DNA from: an uncultured Steroidobacteraceae bacterium
GTDB lineage: Bacteria; Pseudomonadota; Gammaproteobacteria; Steroidobacterales; Steroidobacteraceae
Direction: 5' to 3'
DNA length: 64,000 nt
NCBI GenBank assembly: GCA_964455685.1
Contig: CAYVZE010000003.1
Span: forward strand, 119 to 64,118
Shown here one piece after another: positions 23,482 to 46,019 of this stretch. The notes beneath the pieces were generated by a model. It had not been told where the DNA came from. It was given only the letters and a program-made list of their open reading frames with translations, and did not search any database. Position 1 is the first letter of the stretch; every line of letters begins with the position of its first letter. Both the position numbers and the translations under genes were made by a program.

Positions 23482-25614
23482 TCAGCGGACCGACGCACCC
23501 TCGCGCAGGATCTTCGGGGTCACGAAGATCAGCAGCTCGTCCTTGTTGTTCACGCGGTCGGTGCTGCGGAACAGGTTGCCGAGCAGCGGCACGTCGCCCA
23601 GCAGCGGCACCTTCTTCACGGTCTCGCGACGCTCGGTCTCGAGGATGCCGCCCAGCACCACGGTCTGGCCGTCGTTCACCACCACGCGGGTGGTGATCTC
23701 GCTGGAGTCGATCGACGGGATCTGGCCGCCGCCGATGCCGACCACGAACTGGCCGACGCGCTCCTTGACCACGGTGATGTCCAGGATCAGGCGGTTGTCA
23801 GGCGTGATCAGCGGGGTCACCGACAGCGAGGTCTTGGCGTCCTTGAACGACACCGAGGTCGCGCCGCTGGAGGCAGCTTCCTGGTAGGGAATCTCGGAAC
23901 CCTGCGCGATCAGGGCCTGCTGCTGGTTGGCCACGATCAGGCTCGGGGAGGAGATCACCTCGCCATGGCCCTCGTTCTGGGCCGCGGACAGCTCCAGGTC
24001 GAGCAGGTAGTCGCTGCCCAGCACCATGAAGGCGATGCTGCCGGCCGGGTTGGCCACGGGCAGGTTCACGTTGTAGCGGCTGGGCGCGAACGGCGCACCA
24101 CCCGGGAACGGGGCGCCGGAGCCGAGAATGTCCTCGTTGGCCAGGGCCGAACCCGTGGAGGAGATGAAGCCGTCGCCGGTGGCCTCGACGCCGGTGGCGC
24201 CGAAACGCACGCCCAGCTGGCGCTGGAAGTCCTCGCTCACGGCCACGATGCGGGCCTCGATGCGCACCTGGCGCACCGGGATGTCCAGCTGCGAGACCAG
24301 GTCACGGATCGCGCTGATGCTCTCGGCGGTGTCCTGGATCAGCAGCGCGTTCAGGCCCGGGTACACCGACACGTTGCCGCGCGGGGACAGCAGCGAGCCG
24401 GTACCCTGCGAGCGGATCAGCGTGGCCAGGTCCGAGGCCTTGGCGAAGTTCACCTGCACGACCTCGGTACGCAGCGGAGCCAGCTCCTGCACCTCCTGGC
24501 GGGCCGCCAGCTCGGCCTTCTCGCGGGCGGCCAGCTGGGCGGTGGGCCCGATGATGATGGCGTTGTCATGCACGCGCTTGTCCAGGCCCTTCAGGCGCAG
24601 GACGATGTCCAGCACCTGGTCCCAGGGCAGGCTCTCGAAGCGCAGCGTGACGCTGCCGGACACCGAGTCGTCCACGAAGATGTTGCGGCCGCTCGTCTCG
24701 CCGATCAGCGACAGCAGCGTGCGGACCGGGATGTCCTGGAAGTTGGCGCTCATGCGCTCGCCGGTATAGGTCGGGCGGTCGGCCACGGTGGCGCGCGGCT
24801 GGCGACGCGGCTGCACCTCGATGACGTACTGGTCCTCGGCCTGGTAGGCGAGCTGCTCGAAGTCGCCGGAGGCATTGATCAGCAGCTGGGCGCCGTTCGG
24901 CGTGCTCAGCGCATCGAAGCCGGTCACCGGGGTGGCGAAGTCGGTCACGTCGAAGCGGCGGCGCAGCTCGGCGGGCAGGTCGGCGCCGACGAAGTCGACG
25001 ATGATCTGGTTGCCCTGCTGGCGCAGGTTCACCGGGGTGCGCGGGTCACCCAGGCGCACCACCAGCCGGCCGGCGCCCGAGGCGTCACCCGAGCGACGGA
25101 AGTCGATGGTCTGGATGCCCCGGCCCATGCGCGGCAGGGGCGCGGAGGTCGAGGCCGGCTCGGCGGGGGCGGCGGCTGCAACGGGCAGGGCCGCGCCGGC
25201 ACCGGCGGCGGCACCCAGCGTCACGAAGATGCGGTTGCCTTCCACGCGCGAGGCGTAGGGCAGCGACTGGTCGAGGTTCAGCACCACGCGGGTGCGGCCG
25301 TCGGCCTCGGCGAACAGCACGCTGTCCAGGCCGTTGCTGCGCACGTCGATGCGTCGCTGCGTGACGCCCAGCGCGGTGTCCTGCAGGGTCAGGGAGATGC
25401 GCGCCGGGTTCTCGATGGCGAAGGCATGGGGCTCGGGGGCATCCGCGCTGGTGGTCAGCACCAGCTGCACGCCCTGCGTGCCCAGGGGCTGCACGTCCAC
25501 CGACTGCAGCGTGTTGCCGCCCTGTGCGGCCATGACGCCCGGAGCGGCGATGATGGCCAGCGCCGCCAGCAGCATGCCGCGCAACGTCGGGGTTATGGCG
25601 ATACTACGGTTCAT
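23482..25614 (-). CDS. pilQ: type IV pilus secretin PilQ
   Basis: ATG 25614 with GGAGA 7 nt upstream. Signal peptide, AMIN-like N-terminal repeats, and a secretin C-terminal domain (VPLLGDVPLLGNLFR..ELLIFVTPKI). Follows pilMNOP. Confidence 0.9.
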   Translation of the reverse strand: MNRSIAITPTLRGMLLAALAIIAAPGVMAAQGGNTLQSVDVQPLGTQGVQLVLTTSADAPEPHAFAIENPARISLTLQDTALGVTQRRIDVRSNGLDSVLFAEADGRTRVVLNLDQSLPYASRVEGNRIFVTLGAAAGAGAALPVAAAAPAEPASTSAPLPRMGRGIQTIDFRRSGDASGAGRLVVRLGDPRTPVNLRQQGNQIIVDFVGADLPAELRRRFDVTDFATPVTGFDALSTPNGAQLLINASGDFEQLAYQAEDQYVIEVQPRRQPRATVADRPTYTGERMSANFQDIPVRTLLSLIGETSGRNIFVDDSVSGSVTLRFESLPWDQVLDIVLRLKGLDKRVHDNAIIIGPTAQLAAREKAELAARQEVQELAPLRTEVVQVNFAKASDLATLIRSQGTGSLLSPRGNVSVYPGLNALLIQDTAESISAIRDLVSQLDIPVRQVRIEARIVAVSEDFQRQLGVRFGATGVEATGDGFISSTGSALANEDILGSGAPFPGGAPFAPSRYNVNLPVANPAGSIAFMVLGSDYLLDLELSAAQNEGHGEVISSPSLIVANQQQALIAQGSEIPYQEAASSGATSVSFKDAKTSLSVTPLITPDNRLILDITVVKERVGQFVVGIGGGQIPSIDSSEITTRVVVNDGQTVVLGGILETERRETVKKVPLLGDVPLLGNLFRSTDRVNNKDELLIFVTPKILREGASVR

Positions 25615-25631
25615 TCGAATGTCTCCTGCCA

Positions 25632-26123
25632 TCATTCGGCCAAGGCCAGCGAGGCCGGGCGCTCCATGAATCCACCAAGTCCGTCGGGCACAATCTCGAT
25701 GATGCTGATGCGCGAGGGTTCCACGCTGGTGATGCGACCCTCGTTCTGGCCCAGGTGATTGCCCGGCAGCACGCGGTGAACGATGCCATCGCGGGTCTTC
25801 ACCAGGCCGTAATTGCGGCCACCGATGTACATCGTGCCCACCATCTGCAGCGTGTCGAGCGGGAACTGCTCGAGGTGCTCGCGGTTGCGGGAGCTGTTCG
25901 GGCGGACACGGCTCGATTCACCCGAGCCCCCCGGCACGAACGGCGAGCGCAGGTGCTGGGCGGTGTACGCGAAGCTCTCATAGGGCTTGATCTGCGGGAG
26001 CTGCTCGATGCCGGTGGGCTGCTCCTGCTTCGTCTGGGCGATGAAACGCCTCAGGTCCTCGTCCTTCGACGAGCAGCCGGCAGCCAGCGCCAGCGCCAGC
26101 AATGGGATTGCCTTTCTGATCAT
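25632..26123 (-). CDS. pilP: type IV pilus lipoprotein PilP
   Basis: Lipobox LALAAGCSS. Size and position between pilO and pilQ. ATGA overlap with pilO. Confidence 0.8.
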   Translation of the reverse strand: MIRKAIPLLALALAAGCSSKDEDLRRFIAQTKQEQPTGIEQLPQIKPYESFAYTAQHLRSPFVPGGSGESSRVRPNSSRNREHLEQFPLDTLQMVGTMYIGGRNYGLVKTRDGIVHRVLPGNHLGQNEGRITSVEPSRISIIEIVPDGLGGFMERPASLALAE

Positions 26124-26770
26124 TGCTGCCTGCGGTTGCGGTTACGGTTGTTGCGGTTCTGCTCGGCCGTGCGGGCCGCAACCTCTTCTTCGTCGAGGTA
26201 GCGGTAGGTGCGCGCGGTCACATCCATCTGCAGCTGGTCGAAGCCGGCATTGCGCGGCGCGGAGATCGACACGTCGTGCAGCGTCACGATGCGCGGCAGG
26301 GCGGCGATGGTGCTGACGAATTCCGCCAGCTGGTGGTAGCTGCCGCGGACGCGGATCTTGATCGGCTGCTCGGCATAGAAGTCGCGCAGCACCTCGCTCT
26401 GCGGCTGGAACAGGTCCTGCGTCACCACGCCGCTGCCGGCCTGGGAGATGTCGTTGAGCAGCCCGGGCATCTCGGTGCGGCCCGGCAGCTGCCGCAGCAT
26501 GGCGCCGAAGGAAGCCTCGATGTCGGCAAGCTGCTGCTTGTACAGGTCGAGGTTCACGGCCTTGGCATGCTTGGACCGGAACTCTTCGCGCAGGGTCACT
26601 TCCTCGCGCTCCAGCCGGGCCAGTTCATCCTTGCTGCGGTTCCAGACCATGAACCACACCAGGAACGCGCTGGCGATCACGAAGAAAATCGCGATCACGC
26701 CGGCGCGGACCGGCAGAGGCCAGCGGCCCGGATCCTTCCAGTCGATCTGCTTGAGTTCGTCGAGGGTCAT
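26120..26770 (-). CDS. pilO: type IV pilus alignment protein PilO
   Basis: Single N-terminal TM (VRAGVIAIFFVIASAFLVWFMVW), a coiled-coil, then an alpha/beta domain. Operon position. Confidence 0.8.
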   Translation of the reverse strand: MTLDELKQIDWKDPGRWPLPVRAGVIAIFFVIASAFLVWFMVWNRSKDELARLEREEVTLREEFRSKHAKAVNLDLYKQQLADIEASFGAMLRQLPGRTEMPGLLNDISQAGSGVVTQDLFQPQSEVLRDFYAEQPIKIRVRGSYHQLAEFVSTIAALPRIVTLHDVSISAPRNAGFDQLQMDVTARTYRYLDEEEVAARTAEQNRNNRNRNRRQQ

Positions 26771-26785
26771 GGGGTGTCCTGCGGC

Positions 26786-27349
26786 CTATTTGCGGGACGC
26801 ACGCGCCGGGGCGGCCTGCGGGGCCGGGGCCTGGCCCGCCACCTGTTCCGCGTTCATCGTGAAGTTGGTGCCCTGGAGCACCTCGATCGCGGGCTTGGTC
26901 AGCCACTCGGACGATTCGATCGCGCGCATGAAGTTCGACACGCGCGTGGCCGACTGGGTGACACCGGTCAGCTTGATGCGCCGGCCGGTCTGCTGCAGCG
27001 AGGTCAGGTAGACGCCGTCCGGGATGATCCTCGCGAAGGTGTCGAAGATGTGCACGATCTCCGGACGCGAGCGCTGCAGCGTCTCGATGATCTGCATGCG
27101 CGCGATCAGCTGCTGCTTCTGCTGGTCGAGGCTGTTGATCTCCTCGATCTTCTTGTCCAGCTCGCGGATCTCGGCACGCAGCAGGTTGTTGCGGCCGCGC
27201 TGCGAATCCATCATCTGGTTCATCAGGAACCACGCCACGCCGGCCACGGCGAGTGCGCCGACGAGCGCACCGAACATGCCGACGGCAAACGCCTTCTTGC
27301 GCTCGAGGCGCTGCTGTTCACGCCAGGGAAGCAGGTTTATGCGAGGCAT
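26786..27349 (-). CDS. pilN: type IV pilus alignment protein PilN
   Basis: The conserved N-terminus MPRINLLPWRE, which binds PilM in characterised systems. One TM. Operon position. Confidence 0.8.
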   Translation of the reverse strand: MPRINLLPWREQQRLERKKAFAVGMFGALVGALAVAGVAWFLMNQMMDSQRGRNNLLRAEIRELDKKIEEINSLDQQKQQLIARMQIIETLQRSRPEIVHIFDTFARIIPDGVYLTSLQQTGRRIKLTGVTQSATRVSNFMRAIESSEWLTKPAIEVLQGTNFTMNAEQVAGQAPAPQAAPARASRK

Positions 27350-27350
27350 G

Positions 27351-28415
27351 TCAGTCGAAGCTCCGCAGTGCCAGACCGCAGGCGGTCAGCAGGGAAGTGG
27401 CGTCGCGCTGCACCGCCTGGGCGCGGGCGCGGGAGGAGATGCGCATCTGGCCGAGCGGATCGCCCTTCTCGGCCTCGATTCCGATGCGGCTCTGCACGAC
27501 GTCGGCGACGCCGGGGATGTTGGCGCAGCCACCGCACACCAGCACCTTCTCCGGCTGCTCACGGCCGGTGCCGGAGGCCAGGTAGAACTGCAGCGAGCGG
27601 CTGATCTGCTGCGTCATGTCGTCGATGAAGGGATCGAGCACGTCGGTCTGGTAGTTGGCCGGCAGGCCGCCTTCCTTCTTCGCGCGCCCGGCTTCCTCGA
27701 GCGACAGGCCGTAGGTGCGCATGATTTCCTCGGTGAGCTGCTGGCCACCGAAGGCGAAGTCACGCGTGTAGATGACCTTGAGGTTCTTCAGCACGCTGAA
27801 GGTGGTGGTGCTGGCGCCGAAGTCGACCACCGCCACCACGCGGTCGATGCCGCCATCGGGCATCTGGTGCGTCATCAGCTTGCAGGCGTTCTCGAGCGCG
27901 AAGGCCTCGACGTCGACCACCCGGGCCACCAGGCCCGCCGCGGCCACCGCCACGCGACGCTGCTCCACGTTCTCGCTGCGCGAGGCCACCAGCAGCACGT
28001 CGTTGGCGTCCTGGTCCTTCTCGGAGGGACCGAGCACCTCGAAGTCGTAGGCAACCTCTTCCATCGGGAAGGGGATGTACTGGTCGGCCTGCATCTCGAC
28101 CTGGGCCTCGAGGTCGGCCTCGGTCAGGTTGCGCGGCATCTGGATCACCTTGGTGATCGCCGCGTCGCCGTGGATGGCCACCGCCACTTCCCTGGTGCGG
28201 GAGCCTGCACGGCGCACCGCACGGGCAATCGCCTCGCCGACCGCATCGGCGTCGACGATGGCCTTCTCGTTCATGGCGTTCTGGGGAGTCGGTTCAGCCG
28301 CGTAGGACTCGACCGTGTATTGCCCGCCGGACAGGCTGAGTTCGATCAGCTTGATGGAGGACGTTGTAATATCAAGGCCAAGGACCGGGCGGTGTTTTCG
28401 AAAATTTAGAAACAC
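27351..28415 (-). CDS. pilM: type IV pilus actin-like ATPase-fold protein PilM
   Basis: GTG 28415 preceded by AGGGAGA. LGLDITTSSIKLIELS, DFGASTTTFSV, VCGGCANIPG. Divergent from ponA, as in pseudomonads and xanthomonads. Confidence 0.9.
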   Translation of the reverse strand: MFLNFRKHRPVLGLDITTSSIKLIELSLSGGQYTVESYAAEPTPQNAMNEKAIVDADAVGEAIARAVRRAGSRTREVAVAIHGDAAITKVIQMPRNLTEADLEAQVEMQADQYIPFPMEEVAYDFEVLGPSEKDQDANDVLLVASRSENVEQRRVAVAAAGLVARVVDVEAFALENACKLMTHQMPDGGIDRVVAVVDFGASTTTFSVLKNLKVIYTRDFAFGGQQLTEEIMRTYGLSLEEAGRAKKEGGLPANYQTDVLDPFIDDMTQQISRSLQFYLASGTGREQPEKVLVCGGCANIPGVADVVQSRIGIEAEKGDPLGQMRISSRARAQAVQRDATSLLTACGLALRSFD

Positions 28416-28644: not shown

Positions 28645-31326
28645 GTGAACCCCATCCTCGTTCGCTCCCTCCGCTGGTTCGCCGTGGGCCTCGGGACCCT
28701 GGTCCTTCTGTTCGCCTTTGCCCTGGCCTGCACCTACGTCTACCTGGCCCCCTCCCTGCCTTCGGCCGAAAACATGCACCGGATGCAGCTGGCCGTTCCC
28801 TTGAGGGTGTATGCCCGCAACGGGGGCCTGATCGCCCAGATCGGCGAGCAGCGCCGCATCCCGGTCGAGTTCGATGACGTGCCCATGGTCGTCCGCCAGG
28901 CGGTGATAGCCGCCGAGGACGCCGGCTTCTTCGAGCACAGCGGCTTCGAGTGGCGGGGCATCATCCGCGCGCTGGTGATGAACGTGGCCACCGGCGACGC
29001 CGGCCAGGGTGGCAGCACCATCACCCAGCAGGCCGCCCGCAACCTGTTCCTGACGCTGGACAAGACCCTGCGCCGCAAGCTCTCCGAGGTATTCGTCACC
29101 TGGCGCATGGAGCGCGACTTCACCAAGGAGCAGATCCTGGCGACCTACCTGAACGTGATCCTGTTCGGGCAGCGCAGCTACGGCATCGCCGCGGCGGCGG
29201 AAACCTACTACGGCAAGCGGCTGCACGAGCTCACCGTCGCCGAGGCCGCGACCCTGGCCGGCATCATCCAGCGTCCCTCGGCACAGAACCCCGTCACCAA
29301 TCCCCGCCTGGCCGAGATGCGCCGCAGCTATGTGCTGCGCCGGATGCAGGCGCTGGGCTACATCGATGCGGCCACGGCCGCGGCCGCGGCGAAGGAGCCG
29401 GTTGCCGCGAAGCTCCACGCACCGCTGACCGACGTCGATGCGCCCTACGTGGCGGAGATGGCGCGGCAGGAACTGGTGGCGCGCTTCGGCGAAGCCGCGG
29501 TCAATGCCGGCTACAAGGTGTACACCTCCATTGATGGCCGCCAGCAGACGGCCGCCAACCGCGCATTGCGGCTGGGGCTGATCGAGTTCGACCGCCGCCG
29601 CGGCTACCGCGGCCCGCTGGCCAAGGTCACCCCGCCGACCACCGCGGACGCGGACGAGCTGGACAGGCTGCTGGCCGAGTATCCGCAGGTGAACGTGCTC
29701 TCCCCCGCCGTGGTCACCGCGGTGGCCGCCACCACCGCCGAAGTGCACGTGCGCGGCCAGGGCAAGGCGCGCATCAACTGGGATGGGCTGTCGTGGGCCA
29801 GCAAGGCGCTGCGCAATGGCACCGGCCCCTCGCCGCGCAACGCCGGCGAGGTGCTCGCGCGGGGCGACGTGGTGCACGTCATCACCGACGGCCGCGGCAA
29901 TGCCCAGCTCGCGCAGGTGCCGGAGGTGCAGGCCGCGGTGGTCGCGCTCGACCCGGACGACGGCGCCATCGTGGCGCTGGCCGGCGGCTTCGATTTCTAC
30001 TCCAACCAGTACAACCGCGCGACGCAGGCACGCCGCGGCGCCGGCTCCAGCTTCAAGCCCTTCCTCTACTCCGCCGCGCTGGACAATGGCTTCACGCCAG
30101 CGTCCATCATCATGGACATCCCGCTGCTGCTCGACGACACCGGCAACAGCGAGGAAGTCTGGCGGCCGGAGAACTCCACCCGCTCCTTCGGCGGCCCCAT
30201 GCGCCTGCGCGAAGCGCTGGTGCGGTCCCGCAACCTGGTGTCGATCCGCATCCTCCAGGAACTGGGCATCGACCGCTTCATCGAGCATGCGCAGAAGTTC
30301 GGCTTCGACCCCCAGCAGCTGCCGCGCAACTGGACGCTGGCGCTCGGCACCCAGGCGGTCACGCCGCTGCAGATGACCACCGGCTTCGCCGTGTTCGCCA
30401 ATGGCGGCTTCAAGGTGGAGCCCTACTTCATCGAGCGCATCGAGGATGCCGCGGGCAACGTGGTCTACCAGGCCGAGCCAAAACTGGCCTGCACGCCCTG
30501 CGAGAAGCCGCCAGTTGCGCCCTCCATGCTGCTGCGCGACCCCGGTACGGAGAGCAGCGGCAGCGACGTGGCCACCGTCACCCTGGGCGATGAGACCGCG
30601 GCCTATGGCGCCGATGGCGATACCCCGGGCGGGCTGCCGGGCACTGGCGCCCCGGGCGCGAACGGTCTGCTCTCGCCCGCCGTGCTCGCGGCCGCCGTCA
30701 GGCGCGACAACGCGCCCTCGCCCCGCCTGCTGGGCAACCTGGACGAAGTGCCCGAGCCCATGCGGGAGCTCTTCGCCGCCCAGGGCGGCAACGGCTTCCT
30801 GCCCGAGGAAAGGCTGGCCCCGCGCGTGATCTCGCCGCAGAACGCCTGGCTGATCAGCGACATCCTGCACGACGTCACCGTGCGCGGCACGGCAGTCCGC
30901 TCGCGCTCCCTCGGCCGCGACGACCTGGCCGGCAAGACCGGCACCAACGAGGACCGCGACAACTGGTTCGTCGGCTTCACCCGCGACCTCGTCGCCGGCG
31001 TGTGGCTGGGCTATGACGACTACCGCTCCCTGGGCGCGCGCGCCGAAGGCTCGTCCACGGCGCTGCCGATCTGGATGCATTACATGGAAGAGGCCCTGAA
31101 GGGTACGCCTTCGTCGCGGCCGCCGCGGCCGGAGGAGGGACTGATCGACCTCAGGATCTCCCCGTACACAGGCAAGCTCGCCCATGCGTCCGATCCCGAG
31201 GCCATCGTCGAGACCTTCATGCTGGACGCGCTGCCCGAGGCGCCCCGCCCCGGCGAGCCCGGCTACCTGCCCCCCGGGGCCGAGGACATGCCCGGCGGCA
31301 CGGGGTCCACCGGCCCGCTGTTCTGA
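28645..31326 (+). CDS. mrcA: penicillin-binding protein 1A (bifunctional glycosyltransferase/transpeptidase)
   Basis: GT51 motifs AAEDAGFFEHSG, GGSTITQQAARN, RKLSE. Transpeptidase motifs SSFKPFLY, SRN, KTGT. Confidence 0.9.
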   Translation: MNPILVRSLRWFAVGLGTLVLLFAFALACTYVYLAPSLPSAENMHRMQLAVPLRVYARNGGLIAQIGEQRRIPVEFDDVPMVVRQAVIAAEDAGFFEHSGFEWRGIIRALVMNVATGDAGQGGSTITQQAARNLFLTLDKTLRRKLSEVFVTWRMERDFTKEQILATYLNVILFGQRSYGIAAAAETYYGKRLHELTVAEAATLAGIIQRPSAQNPVTNPRLAEMRRSYVLRRMQALGYIDAATAAAAAKEPVAAKLHAPLTDVDAPYVAEMARQELVARFGEAAVNAGYKVYTSIDGRQQTAANRALRLGLIEFDRRRGYRGPLAKVTPPTTADADELDRLLAEYPQVNVLSPAVVTAVAATTAEVHVRGQGKARINWDGLSWASKALRNGTGPSPRNAGEVLARGDVVHVITDGRGNAQLAQVPEVQAAVVALDPDDGAIVALAGGFDFYSNQYNRATQARRGAGSSFKPFLYSAALDNGFTPASIIMDIPLLLDDTGNSEEVWRPENSTRSFGGPMRLREALVRSRNLVSIRILQELGIDRFIEHAQKFGFDPQQLPRNWTLALGTQAVTPLQMTTGFAVFANGGFKVEPYFIERIEDAAGNVVYQAEPKLACTPCEKPPVAPSMLLRDPGTESSGSDVATVTLGDETAAYGADGDTPGGLPGTGAPGANGLLSPAVLAAAVRRDNAPSPRLLGNLDEVPEPMRELFAAQGGNGFLPEERLAPRVISPQNAWLISDILHDVTVRGTAVRSRSLGRDDLAGKTGTNEDRDNWFVGFTRDLVAGVWLGYDDYRSLGARAEGSSTALPIWMHYMEEALKGTPSSRPPRPEEGLIDLRISPYTGKLAHASDPEAIVETFMLDALPEAPRPGEPGYLPPGAEDMPGGTGSTGPLF

Positions 31327-32997: not shown

Positions 32998-33477
32998 TCA
33001 GCCGCTGGTGCGTGTGTCCCCGACGACGCGCGCTGGCACGCCGACCACCACCGCATGGTCGGGCACGTCGCGCGTCACCACAGCCCCGGCCCCGACCAAC
33101 GCGCCCTCGCCGATGGTCACGCCGGCCACGATGGTGGCATTGGAGCCGATGGAAGCGCGGCGCTTGACCAGCGTCGGCACCAGCGCCCAGTCCGCATCGG
33201 TCTGCAACGAGCCGTCGGGATTGGTCGCGCGCGGATGCAGGTCGTTGGTGAACATCACCCCATGCCCGATGAAGACCTCATCCTCGATGGTCACGCCCTC
33301 GCAGACGAAGGAGTGCGAGGAGATCTTGCAACGAGCCCCGATCACGACACCCTTCTGGATCTCGACGAACGTTCCGATCCGCGAGCCGGCGCCGATGGTG
33401 CACCCGTACAGGTTCACCAGGCCGGGATGGAAGATGACCACGTTCTCGCCAAGCACGACCGAATCGGCAATGGGCAT
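32998..33477 (-). CDS. left-handed beta-helix (hexapeptide) sugar N-acetyltransferase, WbpD/WlbB-like
   Basis: ATG 33477 with GGAGAA upstream. Imperfect hexapeptide repeats throughout (IGAGSRIGTFVEI, IGARCKISSHSFV, IGSNATIVAGVTIGEGALVGAGAVV). Confidence 0.7.
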   Translation of the reverse strand: MPIADSVVLGENVVIFHPGLVNLYGCTIGAGSRIGTFVEIQKGVVIGARCKISSHSFVCEGVTIEDEVFIGHGVMFTNDLHPRATNPDGSLQTDADWALVPTLVKRRASIGSNATIVAGVTIGEGALVGAGAVVTRDVPDHAVVVGVPARVVGDTRTSG

Positions 33478-33781
33478 GTGTTTCTCCTGGAAAGCGGCCC
33501 CGGGTCACGCAATACCGGGACCGAAGCGCGAGGAATGATACCCGAAGCCCGCTGCTCATTATGTCGACCTGTGACCTGATTCAGACTTGGGTCCTGCCGG
33601 ATTCTGGTAGCCTTGCAACCTCCGGGCGTAACCCCCTTTTTTATCTATATAAAATGTGCCAATTGGTTGTCGCGGACCCGGGATATTGCGGCAGTGATGC
33701 CCCCCGCGCGACCGCCATTGCCCACAGGCGGGCGTCGCCACCCACCACCCGAACCGAATCCGAATCACCGAGGGAATCGAA

Positions 33782-34906: not shown

Positions 34907-34915
34907 TGGAGAACC

Positions 34916-36046
34916 ATGGCCGGGAACGCAGTCGTGCCGAAGCCGGATCCTGACACCACCCTGAACACGTCGGTGGACAGGCGGGTTCGCGCGACAGGCG
35001 ACAACATCCTTGCGCGGGCGGCCTTCGTCACGCAGGTGCACAAGGAGAAGCGGAGGAGCGACCGGTCGCGCACTCCGCTGTCGCTCGTGGTCGTGCGGTT
35101 CAGCAGCGACCGGGCAATGGACCGCGACGACTTCCGGGAGATCCTCACGGGCCTCAGCCTGAGCACGCGTGAGACGGACATGATTTGCCATGTCAACGAT
35201 GGGCAGATCGCATTGCTTCTCCCCTATACGGATGCCAACGCGGCCAGGTCGTTCTGCCGGCTGCTCGTCGAGCGCATCCAGGCGCCGGAGATGAAGCTCG
35301 ATGCTGCCAGCTACCCCGACCCGGGCTTCGATGCGCTGCTGGGAGAGGTGTTGGCGGACAGCGAATCCCATTCCGACCTCGGCCTTCACGCGATCCGCGG
35401 CCTGCGGTTCGGACTCGCGGTCAAGCGGCTGATGGACATCGTCGGCTCGATCGTGCTGCTGCTCCTGGCTTCACCGCTGATGCTGGCCATCGCGATCGCG
35501 GTCAAGCTCAGTTCCCCCGGCCCCATCCTGTTCCGGCAGACGCGGGTCGGTCGTGGTGGCGTGCCGTTCCCGTTCCTGAAATTCCGCTCGATGTACGTCG
35601 ACAGCGACGATCGGCTGCACCGCGAGTACGTGCAGAAGCTGATCGACGGCAAGCACAACGAGGTCAATCAGGGCGACGCCAGCAACCCGACCTACAAGAT
35701 GAAGGCGGACCCGCGCATCACGCCGGTCGGCCGGTTCATCCGTCGCACCAGCATCGATGAGCTGCCGCAGCTGTTCAATGTGCTCACCGGCCAGATGAGC
35801 CTGGTTGGGCCGCGCCCGCCGATCCCTTACGAGGTCGAAAAATACCAGTCGTGGCACATGCGCCGCGTGCAGACGATGCGTCCGGGCATCACCGGGTTGT
35901 GGCAGGTTGAAGGGCGCAGCCGCACCACCTTCGACGAAATGGTTCGCCTCGACCTGCGCTACATCCGCAACTGGTCGATCTGGCTGGACATCAAGATCCT
36001 GTTCAAGACCGTCGCCGTCGTGCTGCGCATGGACGGCGCCACCTGA
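34916..36046 (+). CDS. initiating phosphoglycosyl transferase (bacterial sugar transferase family) with N-terminal degenerate GGDEF-like domain
   Basis: The C-terminal about 200 aa form the bacterial sugar transferase core: one re-entrant/TM helix ([22 protein letters not shown]), [45 protein letters not shown]. Residues about 30-125 align with a GGDEF domain (see finding). Confidence 0.8.
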
Positions 36047-36096: not shown

Positions 36097-37212
36097 ATGC
36101 AGAACAAGTCAGTGGTGAACATCGGGGTTGTGGGTTACGGCTACTGGGGACCGAACCTGGTAAGGAACTTCGCCGAGACCCCGGGCCTCAACCTGACGGC
36201 GGTCTGCGACCTCGACCCGGCCAAGCTCGAGCTGGTCAAGAAGCGTTACCCGGCCGTGTCCACCACCAGCCGGTTCGAGGACCTGCTCGAAAACCCGGAG
36301 ATCGATGCACTGGCGATCGCCACCCCGGTCCACACGCATTTCAAGCTCGGCCTCGCTGCACTGCAGGCAGGCAAGCACCTGTGGATCGAAAAGCCGATGA
36401 CCGAGACAGTCGAGCAGTCCAGGCAGCTGGTCGAGGAAGCCGCCAGGCGCAACCTGGTGCTGCTGGTCGACCATACCTTCATCTACACGGGAGCCATCCG
36501 CAAGATCGGCGAAATCATCAAGTCCGGCGACCTCGGCAAGACGCTGTACTACGATTCGACGCGAATCAACCTCGGCCTGTTCCAGAGGGACATCAATGTC
36601 ATCTCGGACCTCGCGGTCCATGACTTCTCCATCCTCGACTACCTGCTGGGCGAGCATCCGACCGCTGTCTCGGCGAACGGCATCAACCACTTTCCCGGCA
36701 CCCCGGAGAACCTCGCCTACATCACTCTGTTCTACGATTCAGGGATGATCGCCCACCTCAACGTCAGCTGGCTGTCGCCGGTGAAGGTCAGGCACATCCT
36801 GATCGGCGGCAGCAAGAAGATGATCACCTACGACGACCTGGAGCCCAGCGAGAAGGTCAAGGTGTACGACAAGGGCGTCAGCTTCACCGAGGATGCCGAG
36901 CAGATCCAGGAAATGCGGGTGGGTTACCGCACCGGCGACATGTGGGCACCGAAGCTCGCGGGCACCGAAGCGCTGCGAGTCGAGGGTGAGCACTTCGCCG
37001 ACTGCGTGCTGAACAACAAGGCTCCCCTTACCGACGGCAAGCTTGGTCTGCGCGTCGTCGAGCTGATCGAGGCCGCCACCCTGTCGATGGCGGCACAGGG
37101 CGAGGTGGTTTACGTGAAGCGCGACCCGTCCGACCGTCGCCAGAGCAAGGCCCCGCGCCGGCGGTTCGACAGGGGCTTCAGGGCCCCCACGAGCAACGAA
37201 CCCGGGCCGTGA
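36097..37212 (+). CDS. Gfo/Idh/MocA-family NAD-dependent sugar-nucleotide oxidoreductase (WbpB-like)
   Basis: ATG 36097 after GAGGGAAG. Rossmann IGVVGYGYWG, and EKPM. Confidence 0.8.
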   Translation: MQNKSVVNIGVVGYGYWGPNLVRNFAETPGLNLTAVCDLDPAKLELVKKRYPAVSTTSRFEDLLENPEIDALAIATPVHTHFKLGLAALQAGKHLWIEKPMTETVEQSRQLVEEAARRNLVLLVDHTFIYTGAIRKIGEIIKSGDLGKTLYYDSTRINLGLFQRDINVISDLAVHDFSILDYLLGEHPTAVSANGINHFPGTPENLAYITLFYDSGMIAHLNVSWLSPVKVRHILIGGSKKMITYDDLEPSEKVKVYDKGVSFTEDAEQIQEMRVGYRTGDMWAPKLAGTEALRVEGEHFADCVLNNKAPLTDGKLGLRVVELIEAATLSMAAQGEVVYVKRDPSDRRQSKAPRRRFDRGFRAPTSNEPGP

Positions 37213-38480
37213 CGGAGCGACAACAGCGGGTACTGCTGCTGGGAGCGGCGTTCGATACCGGCAACATGGGTGTCGGCGCCCTGGCAGCCGCGTCGGTACG
37301 GGTGCTCCATGCCCGATTCCCCCACGCCCGGATTTCCCTGCTCGACTACGCGCGCACCCCTGGCGTCCACGAGGTGGACGTCGGAGGCTCGAGCGTGCCC
37401 GTCGACACGGTGAACCTGCGTTTCTCGTGGAAGATATTCCTGCCCAACAACATCCTGGTGCTGCTGTTGCTGGCGGCGCTGTGCAGGGTGCCGCTGCTGC
37501 GGCGCCTGATCGCGCCCCGCAACCGCTGGATCCGCGCCATCACCGAGGCGAGGACCGCGTTCGCTATTTCAGGCGGCGACAGTTTCAGTGACATCTACGG
37601 GCTGGGCCGTTTCTTCTATGTCGCCTTGCCGCAGATCCTGGTGCTGCTGCTCCGCACGCCGCTGGTGCTCTTGCCACAAACCATCGGCCCTTTCAGCAAG
37701 CGCCTGCCCACCGCCATCGCGGCGGGGATCATGCGCCGCGCGCTGTGCACGCACTCCCGGGACGAGGACGGCATCGAGGTCGCCCGCCGCCTCGCCGGCG
37801 ACACAGTCCCGGTGCGGTTCTGCCACGATGTGGCCTTCGCGCTGGAACCACGCCCTCCCCGGCAGCTGAAAATGGCCGGCCCCACGTGGGAGCAATTGTC
37901 GGGCAAGGTCGTGGTTGGGCTGAACGTGAGCGGCCTGTTGATGATGGGGGGCTATGACGGCCGTAACATGTTCTCGCTGAAGGTCGACTACCGCGACCTT
38001 GTGGATGCGCTCGTGCGCCACTTCTGCAGCATGCCCGGGACGGCGGTGGTCCTGGTGCCGCACGTCTTCTCGGCGGACGCGGAGGGCGACCAGGCCGCCT
38101 GCCGCGAGGTCTTCGACCGGCACTCGGGCGAGTTCGGCGACCGGCTGGCCTGCATCGAATCCAGGCATGACCAGCACGAGATCAAGCACCTGATCGGGCG
38201 CTGCAATTTCTTCCTCGGCGCACGCATGCACGCCTGCATCGGCGCCCTCTCGCAGGGAATCCCGGCGATCGGCATCGCCTACAGCAGGAAGTTCGCCGGC
38301 GTGCTGGCGAGCGTTGGGGCTCGTGACCTGGTAGTCGATCCGCGCCAGTCGATCCTGGATGAGATACTGGCCACCGTCGACGCGAAGTTCGCCGGCCGTC
38401 ACGGCATTTCCGCCCGCCTCCAGGCCACCATGCCGGAGGTCCGGCGCAACGTAATGGGCATGCTGGACGGCATGGCCTGA
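37209..38480 (+). CDS. polysaccharide pyruvyl transferase family protein
   Basis: GTG 37209 overlaps the previous TGA. The general layout matches the PS_pyruv_trans family as recalled (..ISGGDSFSDIYG.., ..RMHACIGALSQGIPAIGIAYSRKF..). Confidence 0.7.
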   Translation: MTERQQRVLLLGAAFDTGNMGVGALAAASVRVLHARFPHARISLLDYARTPGVHEVDVGGSSVPVDTVNLRFSWKIFLPNNILVLLLLAALCRVPLLRRLIAPRNRWIRAITEARTAFAISGGDSFSDIYGLGRFFYVALPQILVLLLRTPLVLLPQTIGPFSKRLPTAIAAGIMRRALCTHSRDEDGIEVARRLAGDTVPVRFCHDVAFALEPRPPRQLKMAGPTWEQLSGKVVVGLNVSGLLMMGGYDGRNMFSLKVDYRDLVDALVRHFCSMPGTAVVLVPHVFSADAEGDQAACREVFDRHSGEFGDRLACIESRHDQHEIKHLIGRCNFFLGARMHACIGALSQGIPAIGIAYSRKFAGVLASVGARDLVVDPRQSILDEILATVDAKFAGRHGISARLQATMPEVRRNVMGMLDGMA

Positions 38481-38500
38481 CAGCACGCGGGAACAGTGGC

Positions 38501-39784
38501 ATGACCAGATTCAAGGACGCAACGGACATCGCCGCCTGGCGCATGTGCATCGGCTGCGGTGCATGCGTATCCGCCTGCCCCGACCGGAAGCTTGAGATGG
38601 TCGACCTGGTCGACGAGGGCCTTCGCCCCCTCCGCACCAGCAGCGGTCCCTGCAGCGGTTGCACGGCCTGCGTGGACGTCTGTCCCGGCATCGCGCTGCG
38701 CGAACCCGCCCCCGCCGGCCCGCAGTACATCGAAAGCCTGCGCAAGAGCTGGGGCCCCGTGCTGCAGGTGTGGGAAGGACATGCGGCCGATGCCGGACTC
38801 CAGTTCAACGGTTCCTCCGGCGGCCTGGCCAGCGCCCTGGCACTGTATGCCGTCGAGCAGGCCGGCATGGCCGGCGTGGTGCACGTCGGCAATGACGACG
38901 TGGTCCGTTATCGCAACCGCACGACGTTCAGCACCACGCGCGAGCAGCTGCTCGCCAGTACCGGATCGCGCTACGCGCCGGCTTCTCCCTGCGACGGCCT
39001 GGGCATGGTCGAAGGACTGCAGGCCCCGGCCGCGTTCATCGGCAAGCCGTGCGACGTGGCCGGGGCCCGCAAGTTGCAGGACCTGCGCCCGGGCGTGAAG
39101 GAAAAGCTTGGCCTCGCCATCGGCATCTTCTGCGCCGGCACGCCCAGCACGCAGGGCACGCTCGACCTGCTCGCCAGACATGGCATCAAGCCGGAGGAAG
39201 TCGAGGAGCTGCGCTATCGGGGACGAGGCTGGCCGGGACATTTCGCCGTACGCCGCAAGGGCTCCAGCGAATGGACCAATCTCGCCACCTACGAGGAAGC
39301 CTGGGCCTTCCTGCAGAGCTACCGCCCCTACAGATGTCACCTCTGCCCGGACAGCACGGCGGAATTCGCCGACATCTCCTGCGGTGATCCATGGTACCGG
39401 CCCATCGAGCCCGGTGAAGCAGGCTCCTCCCTGGTCCTCGCCCGCACCGAGCGTGGACGTGAGATCGTCGAGGGGGCCATCCGCGCCGGCTACGTGAAGC
39501 TGAAGGTGGTGGAGCCGAAGACGCTCGATCTCTCGCAGAAGGAACTGCAGCGCAAGCGTGGCGCCATCTGGGGCCGCACGCTGTCTCTGCGCACCCTGGG
39601 CATCCCGGCGCCGGGGCTGTCGGGATTCAGCCTCTTCAGCAACTGGTTGCGCATCCCGCTGCGTGACAAGGTACGGTCCGTCGCGGGAACCATCCGGCGC
39701 GCCATCAGCCGCGGGATGTACCGGCCCAACGCCCGCCACTTGGTCCGACCGGCAGGAACCGGGGTGAGGGACGGCGAGCGATGA
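38501..39784 (+). CDS. coenzyme F420 hydrogenase/dehydrogenase beta-subunit-like FeS flavoprotein
   Basis: Two ferredoxin-type Cys clusters at the N-terminus (CIGCGACVSACP; CSGCTACVDVCP). FrhB/FdhB-like core (GSSGG, GKPCD, GIFCAGTPS, RYRGRGWPG, CHLCPD). Confidence 0.7.
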   Translation: MTRFKDATDIAAWRMCIGCGACVSACPDRKLEMVDLVDEGLRPLRTSSGPCSGCTACVDVCPGIALREPAPAGPQYIESLRKSWGPVLQVWEGHAADAGLQFNGSSGGLASALALYAVEQAGMAGVVHVGNDDVVRYRNRTTFSTTREQLLASTGSRYAPASPCDGLGMVEGLQAPAAFIGKPCDVAGARKLQDLRPGVKEKLGLAIGIFCAGTPSTQGTLDLLARHGIKPEEVEELRYRGRGWPGHFAVRRKGSSEWTNLATYEEAWAFLQSYRPYRCHLCPDSTAEFADISCGDPWYRPIEPGEAGSSLVLARTERGREIVEGAIRAGYVKLKVVEPKTLDLSQKELQRKRGAIWGRTLSLRTLGIPAPGLSGFSLFSNWLRIPLRDKVRSVAGTIRRAISRGMYRPNARHLVRPAGTGVRDGER

Positions 39785-41190: not shown

Positions 41191-42386
41191 CACTGGCAAC
41201 ACGCAAGCCACTGCACGCATGCATGGTGGCCTACACCTTCTACGAGGGTGACGGCCGCGTCATCCGCTACGCCCGCGCCATCGTGGAAGCTGGCGGAAGC
41301 TGCGACGCCATCGCCCTGCGCCGGCCGGGTCAGCCCGCCGAGGAGGTCATCGACGGCGTGCGCGTATTCAGGATCCAGTACCGCGAGAAGAACGAGCGCG
41401 GCAAGCTGACCTACCTCTGGCGCGTCCTGGCATTCCTGTTCCGCTCCACGTGGGCGCTGGCACGGCGCCATCGGGAGAGGCCCTACGACCTGGTGCACGT
41501 GCACTCCGTGCCGGACTTCGAGGTCTTTGCCGCGCTGCCGGCGAAACTGCGGGGCGCACGGGTGATCCTCGACATCCACGACATCGTGCCCGAGTTCTAT
41601 GCAGCGAAGTTCAGTACGGGAACCGACAGCCTGGTGTTCCGCCTGCTGGTATGGATGGAGCGGGCCTCCGCAGCCTTCGCGAACCACGTGATCATCGCCA
41701 ATGACCTGTGGCGCGACCGGCTGGTTGCCCGTTCCGTCCCCGAGGACAAGTGCACCAGCATCATCAACTACCCGGACGTCTCCACGTTCCGGCCGGGGCT
41801 GCGCCAGCGCAGTGCGGACGGTCGCTTCTTGCTGATGTATCCCGGGTCGTTGAACCACCACCAGGGACTGGACATCGCCATCCGGGCCGTGGCCAAGGTG
41901 CGACCGGAGATTCCCGGCATCGCCTTCGACATCTACGGCGAAGGACCGGAGCGCGGGAACCTGGGGAAACTCGTTGCCGAACTCGGCCTGCAGGACGTGG
42001 TACACCTGCGCGGCACGCGTCCGCTTTCGCAGATCGCAAAGCTGATGGCCGACGCCGACCTGGCCGTTGTGCCCAAGCGCAATGATTCCTTCGGCGGCGA
42101 CGCCTTCAGCACCAAGATCCTGGAATTCATGGCCGTCGGCGTGCCACTGGTGGTAGCCGAGACGCGCGTCGACAAGCATTACTTCGACGAGCGCCTGCTG
42201 CGATTCTTCAGGCCCGATGATGCCGATGACCTTGCGCGCGCGATCCTCGAAGCGTGGCGCAATCCTGCGGATACGCTGGCCCGCGCGCAGGAAGCCTCGG
42301 CGTTCGTCGCGGAGAACAACTGGGACGTGAAGCGCTCGGTGTACCTCGAGATCACCAGGCGCCTGACGGAAAGTCGGGATGGCTGA
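41187..42386 (+). CDS. GT4 (GT-B fold) glycosyltransferase
   Basis: ATG 41187 (ATGA overlap). C-terminal GT4 signature region (YGEGPERGNL..ADLAVVPKRNDSFGGDAFSTKILEFMAVGVPLVV). The listed 665-aa ORF is an upstream extension. Confidence 0.8.
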   Translation: MTLATRKPLHACMVAYTFYEGDGRVIRYARAIVEAGGSCDAIALRRPGQPAEEVIDGVRVFRIQYREKNERGKLTYLWRVLAFLFRSTWALARRHRERPYDLVHVHSVPDFEVFAALPAKLRGARVILDIHDIVPEFYAAKFSTGTDSLVFRLLVWMERASAAFANHVIIANDLWRDRLVARSVPEDKCTSIINYPDVSTFRPGLRQRSADGRFLLMYPGSLNHHQGLDIAIRAVAKVRPEIPGIAFDIYGEGPERGNLGKLVAELGLQDVVHLRGTRPLSQIAKLMADADLAVVPKRNDSFGGDAFSTKILEFMAVGVPLVVAETRVDKHYFDERLLRFFRPDDADDLARAILEAWRNPADTLARAQEASAFVAENNWDVKRSVYLEITRRLTESRDG

Positions 42387-43257
42387 GCTGATGCGTCCGG
42401 ACAGGATGGTGAGCGTGGCGCTGGTGGCGCCGCTGCTGAAGCTGCGCGGCGTTTCCCGCCAGCTGCGCATCCCGATCCTGATGTACCACGGTATCTCAGA
42501 CGCGCTCGACCGGCAGCGCAGCCCCTACTTCCGTACCGTCACGTCCCCCCGGACCTTTGCGGCGCAGCTGGACGTGCTCGCCGGCGATGCGTTTGAAGTA
42601 GTGTCTCTCACCCAGGCCGTGCGGATGCTGCGCGGCGAGATCCGCTCTCGCGAAGGCGCCACTCCCGTGGTGATCACCTTCGACGACGGCCTGCTCGATT
42701 TCTACACGCAGGCGTTCCCGCTGCTCGAGGCTCGCGGCTTCACGGCTACGGTGTTCCTGGCCAGCGCCTGCGTCGGCGGCACCTTCCCCACCGGAGATCC
42801 GTGCATGAGCTGGGTGCAGGTACGCGAGCTGGCTGACCGCGGCATCGATTTCGGTTCACATTCGATGACCCACTCCCGCCTGGTCGAACTGCCGCTGGAG
42901 GCCCTGGAGCAGGAGCTGTCCCGGTCGAAGTCGGACATCGAGCAGAACCTGGGCCGCAAGGTTACCTCCTTCTCGTATCCATTCCGCTTCCCGGCTGAGG
43001 ATGCCCGCTTCACCGCCCATCTGCATGCCCGGCTCGAGGCGAACGGATACGACCACGGCGTCACGACGATGGTCGGACGTGCCGCTGCAGGCAGCGACCT
43101 GCTGTTCCTGCCCCGGCTGCCGGTCAACGACTGCGATGACGAGGCACTGCTGCGCGCCAAGCTGGCCGGCGCCTACGACTGGTTCGGGCCGGTGCAGGCT
43201 GCGTACAAGAAGATGCGATCGATCGCATCCCCCGCCCGGAGGGCGCAGTCCGCATGA
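42379..43257 (+). CDS. polysaccharide deacetylase (CE4/NodB-like)
   Basis: ILMYHGI, VVITFDDGLLDFY, FGSHSMTHSRL, FSYPF. Confidence 0.8.
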   Translation: MAELMRPDRMVSVALVAPLLKLRGVSRQLRIPILMYHGISDALDRQRSPYFRTVTSPRTFAAQLDVLAGDAFEVVSLTQAVRMLRGEIRSREGATPVVITFDDGLLDFYTQAFPLLEARGFTATVFLASACVGGTFPTGDPCMSWVQVRELADRGIDFGSHSMTHSRLVELPLEALEQELSRSKSDIEQNLGRKVTSFSYPFRFPAEDARFTAHLHARLEANGYDHGVTTMVGRAAAGSDLLFLPRLPVNDCDDEALLRAKLAGAYDWFGPVQAAYKKMRSIASPARRAQSA

Positions 43258-44138: not shown

Positions 44139-46019
44139 ATGTGCGGCATCACCGGAATCCTCCGCACCGATGGCGCCCCGGCCGACCGCGGCCTGGTGGA
44201 ACGGATGACGGCGTGCATCAAGCATCGCGGCCCGGACGGCGCCGGCCTGCACATGGACCGCGAGGTCGGGCTCGGCCATCGCCGCCTGAGCATCATCGAC
44301 CTGGAAGGCGGCTCGCAGCCCATCTTCAACGAGGATTCCACCATCGCCGTCGTCTTCAACGGCGAGATCTACAACTTCGTCGAGCTGCGGCAGGAACTGG
44401 AGCAATGCGGGCACGTGTTCCGTACCAGCTCCGACACCGAAGTGATCGTTCACGGCTACGAACAGTGGGGCACGGACTGCGTCCGCCGCTTCAACGGCAT
44501 GTTTGCGTTTGCAGTCTGGGACAGCCGTCGACGCCGCCTTTTCCTGGCGCGCGACCACCTCGGAGTCAAGCCGCTCTACTACGCCCGGCTGCCGGGCCAG
44601 TTGCTGTTCGCCTCGGAAATCAAGGCGCTGCTCGCCAGCGAGGCCGTTGCCCGCCGCGTCGACACTGAGGCGCTCGGCGAGCTGTTCACCTTCCGCTTCG
44701 TACCTGCCCCACGCACGCTGTTCGACGGCATCCACAAGCTTCCGGCCGGGCACCTGATGGTGGCCGAGGGCGGAAACCTGAAGATCGAGCGGTTCTGGGA
44801 CAGAATTCCCCGCCACCTGCAGGATGCCCGCGAGGAATCGCTGGTGGAGCAGTACCAGGCGCTGGTGCAGGACGCCGTACGCCTGCAGCTGCGCAGCGAC
44901 GTGCCTGTGGGGCTGTTCCTCAGCTCCGGCGTCGACTCCGGCTGCTTGCTGGCCGAGATGCGGCGCCAGTCTGGCGGAGCCATACATACCTTCACCATCG
45001 GCTTCGAGGACGGCGAAAGGACCAACGAAACAGATGACGCCCGGGAAATGGCGCGCCGATTCGGATCCACCCACCACGAGTGGATCATCACGGCGGAGGA
45101 CTACCTGGAGTACTACGACCGCTACCTGTGGGACCTCGAGGAACCGGTCGGCAACGAGACGGCCGCAGCGTTCTACTTCGTAGCGAAGCTCGCCGCCCGG
45201 GAGGTCAAGGTTGCGCTCACCGGCCAGGGCGTGGACGAGCCCTGGGCCGGCTATCACCGGTACCTCGGCCTGAAGATGTCCGATACCTACCAGCGTATCC
45301 CGGCATTGATCCGCAGGGGCCTGATCCGGCCACTGGTGAACGCACTGCCGCGCAATGAGCGGCTCAAGCGCGGCGTCGCGTCACTCGACGAACCGGACAT
45401 CCTCACGCGCTTCGCCAAGATCTATTCGTTCTTCACCGAGGACATGCGACAGTCGCTGTTCCGGGGCGACCGACCGGAACTGGCGGTGCACCAGGGCTAC
45501 AAGGCCAGGCAGGCCATTGCACGCCTGCAGCGCGACGTGACACACCTGGATCCGGTGAGCCAGATGCTGTACATCGACACGCGGGCCAGCCTGCCTGATG
45601 ATCTGCTGATGGTCAGCGACAAGACCTCAATGGCCAACTCCATCGAATCCAGGGTACCGTTCCTCGACTGGCGCATCATCGAGTTCATCGAATCGCTGCC
45701 CCTGGAATTCAAGATCCGCGGCGGCACCGGCAAGTACCTGCACAAGAAGGCCATCGAAGCCTGGCTTCCGCAGGAAATCGTCTATCGCAAGAAGAAGGGC
45801 TTCGCCAACCCGGTGGAGAAGTGGTTGCGCGACCGCATGGCCGCCTACGTGGAGGACTTGCTGTTCGACAGCACATCCGGCGTCCGGGATTTCTTCGACG
45901 TCGGCTACATACGCACCATCATGCGTGAACACCAGGCCGGCCGCGAAAGCTACATGCGGCACATCTATCTGCTCATCTCCTTCGAGATGTGGCACCGCCG
46001 TTTCATCCGGGGTAGCTGA
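44139..46019 (+). CDS. asnB: asparagine synthase (glutamine-hydrolysing) family amidotransferase
   Basis: MCGI N-terminal nucleophile, HRGPD, RRLSIIDL, FNGEIYN, PP-loop LSSGVDS. Confidence 0.9.
   Translation: MCGITGILRTDGAPADRGLVERMTACIKHRGPDGAGLHMDREVGLGHRRLSIIDLEGGSQPIFNEDSTIAVVFNGEIYNFVELRQELEQCGHVFRTSSDTEVIVHGYEQWGTDCVRRFNGMFAFAVWDSRRRRLFLARDHLGVKPLYYARLPGQLLFASEIKALLASEAVARRVDTEALGELFTFRFVPAPRTLFDGIHKLPAGHLMVAEGGNLKIERFWDRIPRHLQDAREESLVEQYQALVQDAVRLQLRSDVPVGLFLSSGVDSGCLLAEMRRQSGGAIHTFTIGFEDGERTNETDDAREMARRFGSTHHEWIITAEDYLEYYDRYLWDLEEPVGNETAAAFYFVAKLAAREVKVALTGQGVDEPWAGYHRYLGLKMSDTYQRIPALIRRGLIRPLVNALPRNERLKRGVASLDEPDILTRFAKIYSFFTEDMRQSLFRGDRPELAVHQGYKARQAIARLQRDVTHLDPVSQMLYIDTRASLPDDLLMVSDKTSMANSIESRVPFLDWRIIEFIESLPLEFKIRGGTGKYLHKKAIEAWLPQEIVYRKKKGFANPVEKWLRDRMAAYVEDLLFDSTSGVRDFFDVGYIRTIMREHQAGRESYMRHIYLLISFEMWHRRFIRGS

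Follow-up and report, generated by a model that had tools for sequence, protein, structure and literature searches.

The Fusion Gene and Its Features

The DNA analyzed here is a stretch of 64,000 nucleotides (hereafter the window) from an uncultured Steroidobacteraceae bacterium (GenBank assembly GCA_964455685.1, contig CAYVZE010000003.1, positions 119 to 64,118). It has a G+C content of 66.7% and is without a close relative. Within a long polysaccharide locus it carries a gene whose product joins a GGDEF-like N-terminal domain (N-domain) to a small monotopic phosphoglycosyl transferase (PGT), which would prime undecaprenyl phosphate as the first step of the pathway; the best full-length identity found for this fusion protein was 66%. 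As judged from the alignments, the family to which this N-domain belongs has discarded the catalytic site of a diguanylate cyclase and has kept above all those residues that hold the biofilm signal cyclic di-GMP (c-di-GMP) at the inhibitory site (I-site) of the cyclase. The gene starts with an ATG codon at 34916, with the sequence GGAG at 34908-34911, four bases ahead, and the stop codon of the upstream DegT-family aminotransferase gene ends at 34906, ten bases before the PGT start. The features of the gene are given below, whereby conservation counts refer to 246 aligned domain copies taken from the homologue list and the phmmer matches, PleD and WspR serve as the reference cyclases, and model confidence is given as the predicted local distance difference test (pLDDT).

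34916..36046, + strand: whole gene, GGDEF-like N-domain plus small monotopic PGT, 376 amino acids (open reading frame list; full-length AlphaFold model with pLDDT 86.9)
34916..35005, + strand: residues 1-30, variable N-terminal leader of low confidence (pLDDT ~50; unaligned among homologues)
35006..35368, + strand: residues 31-151, shortened GGDEF-fold domain, predicted to be catalytically dead (profile, AlphaFold, Foldseek)
35045..35065, + strand: E44, R47 and R50 on helix alpha0 (alignment; conserved in 96%, 96% and 99% of the copies)
35096..35098, + strand: R61, in the place of the cyclase metal-binding Asp, PleD D327 and WspR D209 (alignment)
35168..35179, + strand: R85-E-T-D88, RxxD motif of the primary inhibitory site, codons CGT GAG ACG GAC (R 99%, D 99%, T 85% conserved)
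35195..35209, + strand: N94-D-G-Q-I98, degenerate remnant of the GG(D/E)EF hairpin (196 different strings among the 246 copies)
35258..35263, + strand: R115-L116, counterpart of PleD R390, which is the third residue of the primary site (register from a conserved Pro)
35312..35329, + strand: Y133-P-D-x-x-F138, motif conserved across the family, at the transition from beta4 to the last helix (family alignment)
35369..35410, + strand: residues 152-165, variable interdomain linker, partly of low confidence (pLDDT of block 151-160, 52)
35411..35512, + strand: residues 166-199, membrane-associated (re-entrant) helix of the PGT with a Ser186-Pro187 break (model helix 154-199; P187 nearly invariant)
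35423..36025, + strand: residues 170-370, Bac_transf catalytic domain with the Asp281-Glu282 dyad (35756-35761) and GPRPP (Pfam, TIGR03025, Foldseek)

In the model, the GGDEF-like domain consists of alpha0 (residues 34-51), beta1 (55-62), a helix (70-83), beta2 (89-94), beta3 (97-103), a helix (107-120), beta4 (126-133), and a last helix (136-151).

The N-Domain Is a Shortened GGDEF Homologue

The initial annotation, which was made from the sequence alone, had assigned a diguanylate-cyclase fold to residues ~30-125. A word-indexed homologue search with the N-domain alone gave no matches. The copy found here is a divergent member of its family, and full-length and exhaustive searches were needed. 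With the full-length protein, more than 100 homologues that extend over the N-domain were retrieved at 50-66% identity, and precomputed Pfam GGDEF matches exist for several of these. When 1.8 billion cluster representatives were searched exhaustively with phmmer, 114 proteins with the domain were obtained. From 74 diverse related N-domains a profile alignment (A2) was built, which was used for a profile search of the PDB as well as for AlphaFold2. The profile matched GcbC (5euh, E 1.4e-10) and WspR (3i5b, E 5.8e-9), and all matches below E 0.1 were GGDEF domains. With the same alignment, AlphaFold2 modelled residues 25-150 with a pLDDT of 89 and a predicted TM score (pTM) of 0.83 in the order alpha0-beta1-alpha-beta2-beta3-alpha-beta4-alpha. 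The structure prediction proposed in the initial annotation thus gave a GGDEF fold, and a Foldseek search of the PDB with this model returned GGDEF domains exclusively among the top 50 matches (probability 1.00, TM score 0.65-0.80). In a Foldseek search with the full-length model, the N-terminal half matched GGDEF domains and the C-terminal half PglC and WbaP, and no solved structure spanning both halves was among the matches. Since profile matches, AlphaFold model, and Foldseek matches agree, homology is settled, and the N-domain is confirmed at the level of sequence profiles and models as a true GGDEF homologue with a shortened fold. It was the extent of the fold that had to be revised, as the domain reaches to residue ~151.

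The shortening amounts to ~40 residues overall in comparison to a normal GGDEF domain, ~8 of which are missing between beta1 and RxxD, and the domain is without the C-terminal substrate-binding part that carries K442 and R446 in PleD. Chance similarity or a residual cyclase activity are explanations of negligible probability and were rejected on the profile, structure, and family evidence and on the loss of the catalytic residues. A specific ancestry shared with the degenerate-GGDEF proteins PelD and PssE was likewise rejected, as PelD is found neither within the profile matches nor among the top structural matches and the Pfam PelD_GGDEF model gave no match.

The Cyclase Site Is Lost and the Inhibitory Site Is Kept

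A GG(D/E)EF motif is present in none of the 246 domain copies (0/246), and NDGQI occupies its position in the protein described here. The position of the metal-binding Asp, which is R61 here, is Arg in 46% of the copies, and the position of PleD E370 is G96. The residues of PleD that bind guanosine triphosphate (GTP) fare no better in the alignment: F331, K332, N335, and D344 fall into the shortened and unconserved segment between beta1 and RxxD, and the K442/R446 region would lie beyond the end of the domain. The degenerate state of the cyclase site, with NDGQI as the remnant and the metal-binding Asp lost, had been pointed out in the initial annotation and is borne out across the family. Because GG(D/E)EF, the metal-binding Asp, and the GTP-binding residues are all lost from the aligned sequences, a diguanylate cyclase activity can be excluded.

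The conservation pattern of the inhibitory site is the opposite one. The five columns of lowest entropy in the domain are R50, R85, D88, E44, and R47 (99, 99, 99, 96, and 96%), and R47, R50, R85, and D88 occur together in 233 of the 246 copies. The initial annotation had made its proposal depend on the conservation of RxxD among relatives, and the two residues turned out to be 99% conserved although the copies are otherwise only 25-50% identical. The motif was also correctly placed, since R85-E-T-D88 lies at 35168..35179 within the open reading frame 34916..36046, and the spacing holds: exactly five residues (M-I-C-H-V) separate it from N94-D-G-Q-I98, as in PleD, where R359-A-I-D362 is followed by five residues and then by G368-G-E-E-F.

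Residue for residue, the conserved set can be mapped to known c-di-GMP contacts. R85 and D88 correspond to PleD R359 and D362 and to WspR R242 and D245. A hidden Markov model (HMM) alignment to WspR places E44, R47, and R50 on E192, R195, and R198, and in the PleD register R47 falls on R313. The PleD numbering (D327, R313, R359, D362, G368-F372, and R390) was checked against the PDB chains. In WspR, the c-di-GMP site is formed by R242xxD245 together with R198, which is supplied by a neighbouring domain, and R198A and R242A mutants are nucleotide-free on purification. The PleD site is made up of R359, D362, and R390, with R313 contributed by an adjacent domain.

Distribution of the Domain and Its Fusion Partners

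Among 112 cluster representatives with the domain, Bac_transf was detected in 34, whereby many of the others are short fragments at contig ends. Other partners are rare and comprise two receiver domains, two DUF4388 domains, and one WecG/TagA glycosyltransferase. The latter is protein P0141 (532 amino acids), in which two domain copies are fused to a WecG/TagA/CpsF glycosyltransferase in place of the PGT. Within the PGT homologues the domain also occurs in tandem, with three copies in P0057 and P0058 and two copies in P0059, P0062, P0068, P0070, P0077, and P0079, and R50, R85, and D88 are kept in most of these copies. Nearly all of these contexts, be it other partners or tandem repeats, preserve the E-R-R-R-D signature. 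This independence of the fusion partner favours a ligand-binding or homotypic site over a contact that is specific to the PGT.

A survey of the fusion, as suggested in the initial annotation, showed that it recurs. In a scan with one genome per species, at least 19 loci were found, all of which (19/19) are PGT fusions and all of which come from metagenome-assembled genomes; this number is a lower bound, and the scan used a 13-sequence alignment and a single peptide pattern. The loci, all from uncultured Proteobacteria and Thermodesulfobacteriota, belong to Woeseiaceae, Steroidobacteraceae, Burkholderiales, Thermodesulfobacteriota, and "Deltaproteobacteria," with the closest one being a Woeseiaceae locus with 50% identity in the domain. 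One of the 19 is truncated at the end of its contig, and two show frameshifts. An apparent stand-alone N-domain at two loci (L017, 5974-7041; L019, 5830-7053) was rejected, as these are PGT fusions split by apparent frameshifts in nanopore-derived bins. In the Pfam annotation, most members of the family appear as Bac_transf only.

The Transferase Half and Its Membrane Topology

The C-terminal half matches Bac_transf (PF02397) with an E value of 6.7e-71 over residues 170-370 and passes the curated cut-off of TIGR03025, the model for exopolysaccharide polyprenyl glycosylphosphotransferases (317.7 bits vs. 295.55). The full-length models of the large PGTs were not reached: WbaP scored 277.6 against a cut-off of 403 and WcaJ 265 against 410.75, with the alignment limited to the catalytic C-terminus. 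A large PGT of the WbaP/WcaJ type with an N-terminal four-helix membrane domain is ruled out by these scores. The top Foldseek matches of the PGT half were PglC (E 7e-14) and WbaP (40% identity, root-mean-square deviation 2.2). D281, E282, and G298-P-R-P301 are invariant columns, and P187 is nearly invariant. As the Asp281-Glu282 dyad, GPRPP, and the Ser-Pro helix break are kept in the sequence, the PGT domain is intact and presumably active.

The membrane helix of PglC is re-entrant. By analogy, we infer that the corresponding helix of the fusion protein would leave the catalytic domain and the N-domain alike on the cytoplasmic side, where they would share a compartment with c-di-GMP.

A Candidate c-di-GMP Receptor on the Initiating Transferase

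Taking alignments, models, and the analogy to known receptors together, we consider it fairly probable that the dead GGDEF domain has been kept as a c-di-GMP receptor that gates the priming of undecaprenyl phosphate by the PGT. We propose the following course for the binding of c-di-GMP, the cross-linking, and the outcome for the enzyme. An intercalated c-di-GMP dimer would bind to the primary inhibitory site R85/D88, possibly with the help of R115, and the site would be completed by the alpha0 arginines R47 and R50 of a second domain copy. In the protein described here these arginines would come from another molecule, and in the tandem-copy relatives they might be located in the same chain (in cis). 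The resulting cross-link or conformational change would alter transferase activity, most probably by switching it on, as the analogy to PelD, PssE, Alg44, and BcsA suggests. At high c-di-GMP, undecaprenyl phosphate would then be committed to the Wzy-type polysaccharide pathway at its first step.

As a variant of this model, the opposite direction is conceivable as well. c-di-GMP might bind and inhibit the transferase by cross-linking or immobilization, in which case polysaccharide would be made at low c-di-GMP. In the original cyclase context the I-site is indeed inhibitory and acts through domain immobilization, yet PssE, a degenerate-GGDEF receptor in a polysaccharide system, is needed for synthesis, and PelD and YdaK are degenerate-GGDEF receptors that are needed for or activate polysaccharide synthesis. 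We regard inhibition as unlikely.

Several observations weigh against a c-di-GMP receptor on the transferase. Firstly, the Pfam check that the initial annotation had proposed failed for the single sequence, with 22.1 bits for GGDEF_2 (PF17853; cut-off 24.5, E 1.8e-4) and 11.9 bits for GGDEF (PF00990; cut-off 23.8, E 0.19); it succeeded at the level of the family, where Pfam GGDEF was called at E <= 0.001 in 22 of the 112 representatives. Secondly, the Arg and Glu positions of alpha0 are fairly conserved in active cyclases too, so that they might have a structural role. Thirdly, small monotopic PGTs have been described as functional monomers, which makes dimerization or cross-linking the most speculative step of the proposed mechanism.

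A further point concerns the third basic residue of the primary site, which is R390 in PleD and R402 in PelD. In a gapless register from a conserved Pro (PleD P377, P103 here), PleD R390 falls on L116, with R115 adjacent; the pairing of AERIR in PleD with VERIQ that was suggested in the initial annotation is four residues out of register. Lys or Arg occurs at position 116 in 48% of the copies and at position 115 or 116 in 76%. This only partial retention, the shortened and divergent form of the domain, and the existence of a PleD structure with ppGpp (9g85) would fit a receptor for another nucleotide, such as 3'3'-cGAMP, c-di-AMP, (p)ppGpp, GTP, or a UDP-sugar, at a remodelled site. Sensing at the old active site is unlikely, since its GTP-binding residues are deleted or unconserved, whereas the residues that were kept are those by which the inhibitory site reads the guanines of c-di-GMP. 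Thus, another nucleotide appears to us quite improbable as the ligand.

The last point is a genomic one. The window open reading frames that were scanned and the regions flanking 22 related loci contained no genes for diguanylate cyclases, EAL, or PilZ proteins, and with none of these genes nearby there is no genomic link to c-di-GMP metabolism. Such an absence would fit a ligand-free scaffold, whose conserved Arg, Asp, and Glu residues would form salt bridges for self-association or for docking to the transferase or to other proteins of the pathway, for instance in the assembly of a priming complex. GGDEF domains are known whose only role is in protein-protein contacts, the charged conserved alpha0 residues could make an interface, tandem repeats would suit a self-associating module, and a Myxococcus receiver protein controls its PGT through direct contact. 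On the other hand, RxxD is almost invariant in the face of free drift elsewhere in the former active site. The fold as such would not require this motif, since it is reportedly present in no more than about half of the active cyclases (Christen et al., 2006). Moreover, the conserved set coincides with the experimentally defined c-di-GMP contacts, and the signature survives changes of the fusion partner. On balance, we consider a ligand-free scaffold unlikely and prefer the c-di-GMP receptor.

A more far-reaching version of the receptor proposal, according to which the domain is a portable, hitherto undescribed c-di-GMP module whose I-site is bridged to the alpha0 arginines of a second copy and which gates undecaprenyl-phosphate priming itself, is put forward tentatively, with somewhat less than even confidence.

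Genomic Context of the Fusion Gene

The polysaccharide locus around the fusion gene encodes a family 2 glycosyltransferase (GT2), a hexapeptide acetyltransferase, the DegT-family aminotransferase, the PGT, a Gfo/Idh/MocA oxidoreductase, and a pyruvyl transferase, further an FrhB-like protein, a Wzy-like membrane protein, a family 4 glycosyltransferase (GT4), a deacetylase, a GT2, an AsnB-type amidotransferase, and another GT2. In the locus of one relative, the DegT-PGT core recurs and is accompanied by a Wzx flippase. The pathway is apparently of the Wzy type and dependent on undecaprenyl phosphate.

Some further observations concern the genes next to the fusion. The hexapeptide acetyltransferase gene (32998-33477, - strand) is located on the strand opposite to the flanking sugar-pathway genes, and the gap of ~300 bases before the DegT gene (33478-33781) could hold divergent promoters. 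Downstream of the PGT, the region 37209-39784 (+ strand) encodes a polysaccharide pyruvyl transferase followed by an FrhB/FdhB-like iron-sulfur protein, and still further downstream lie the genes for a polysaccharide deacetylase (42379-43257) and an AsnB-type amidotransferase (44139-46019). This combination of pyruvyl transferase, FrhB/FdhB-like protein, AsnB-type amidotransferase, and deacetylase presumably resembles exopolysaccharide loci of the exosortase/PEP-CTERM type.

Also inside the glycan locus is a gene for a hybrid enzyme of 2189 amino acids (48605-55174, - strand) with fatty-acyl-AMP ligase, methyltransferase, carrier protein, ketosynthase, and acyltransferase domains, whereby three carrier-protein (PP-binding) stretches are present and the last one is C-terminal. 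It adjoins genes for a PglD-like acetyltransferase (55214-55864), a GT2, an ABC exporter (57238-59043), and a second DegT-family protein (59832-60941). The hybrid enzyme and its neighbours hint at a lipid- or polyketide-modified glycan.

Elsewhere in the window, three consecutive DUF6502-family paralogues are encoded at 17429-20597 (- strand), and the PilQ secretin together with four small upstream genes, probably pilMNOP, at 23482-28415 (- strand). A gene for a class A penicillin-binding protein (28645-31326, + strand) adjoins the PilQ genes and lies immediately upstream of the glycan locus.

Precedents and Implications

The closest functional precedents are PssE of Listeria monocytogenes and PelD of Pseudomonas aeruginosa, which share with the domain described here a dead GGDEF site, an RxxD motif five residues before the degenerate motif, and a gene position within a polysaccharide locus. 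PssE binds two c-di-GMP per protein with a dissociation constant (Kd) of 0.79 uM and is needed for exopolysaccharide synthesis, so that the PssE precedent invoked in the initial annotation holds. PelD is a degenerate-GGDEF I-site receptor in an exopolysaccharide system, and PopA is counted among the receptors of this type. By analogy to both, an intercalated c-di-GMP dimer and a post-translational control of synthesis would be expected for the fusion protein. However, PssE and PelD are separate membrane proteins of synthase-dependent machineries, whereas in the fusion protein a single chain carries both the domain and the initiating PGT; there is also no specific sequence relationship, and theirs is not the compact form of the domain found here. 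With PleD and WspR the domain has the fold and the inhibitory-site residues in common. Unlike these cyclases, it is without a cyclase site, a receiver domain, and a stalk, and the output would be a transferase rather than feedback on c-di-GMP synthesis. The C-terminal 210 residues resemble PglC in fold, Asp-Glu dyad, PRP motif, and re-entrant helix, yet PglC lacks an N-terminal cytoplasmic domain.

For the control of an initiating PGT, the nearest parallel is the EpsW-EpsZ pair of Myxococcus xanthus, in which the receiver protein EpsW activates the PGT EpsZ. There, as may be the case here, the initiating PGT, and thus the first step of the pathway, is the post-translational target of a signalling domain. 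The systems differ in that EpsW-EpsZ has phosphorylation as its input, a separate receiver protein as its regulator, and a large PGT of the WbaP type. In the EpsW-EpsZ paper it is pointed out that small PGTs can carry regulatory domains, for example receiver domains, and the post-translational control of Wzx/Wzy- and ABC-dependent pathways is described there as poorly understood. A search of the full-text literature found no published GGDEF-PGT fusion and no c-di-GMP binding by a PGT, although the architecture may be listed in the fusion survey of O'Toole et al. (2021).

For the synthase-dependent systems of cellulose, alginate, Pel, poly-N-acetylglucosamine (PNAG), and Listeria Pss, post-translational control by c-di-GMP is well established. 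The receptor principle as such is familiar. What is new is that the domain sits on the transferase that initiates an undecaprenyl-phosphate pathway, as well as the compact, unannotated form of the domain. This form, with ~120 residues and the signature E-x-x-R-x-x-R ... R-x-[TS]-D, is currently missed by genome annotation. The fusion also constitutes a simple and directly testable system, consisting of a single polypeptide with four point mutants and an assay for the release of uridine monophosphate (UMP) that is already established.

An initiating PGT takes its substrate from a pool of undecaprenyl phosphate that is both shared and limiting, and a c-di-GMP sensor on this enzyme would place the decision on a matrix polysaccharide where it comes earliest and costs least. 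If the reading as a portable module is true, it would represent the first direct second-messenger control of an initiating PGT in a Wzx/Wzy-type pathway. The versions with two or three copies would then be built-in cooperative threshold sensors, and the module would have been reused on a WecG/TagA glycosyltransferase.

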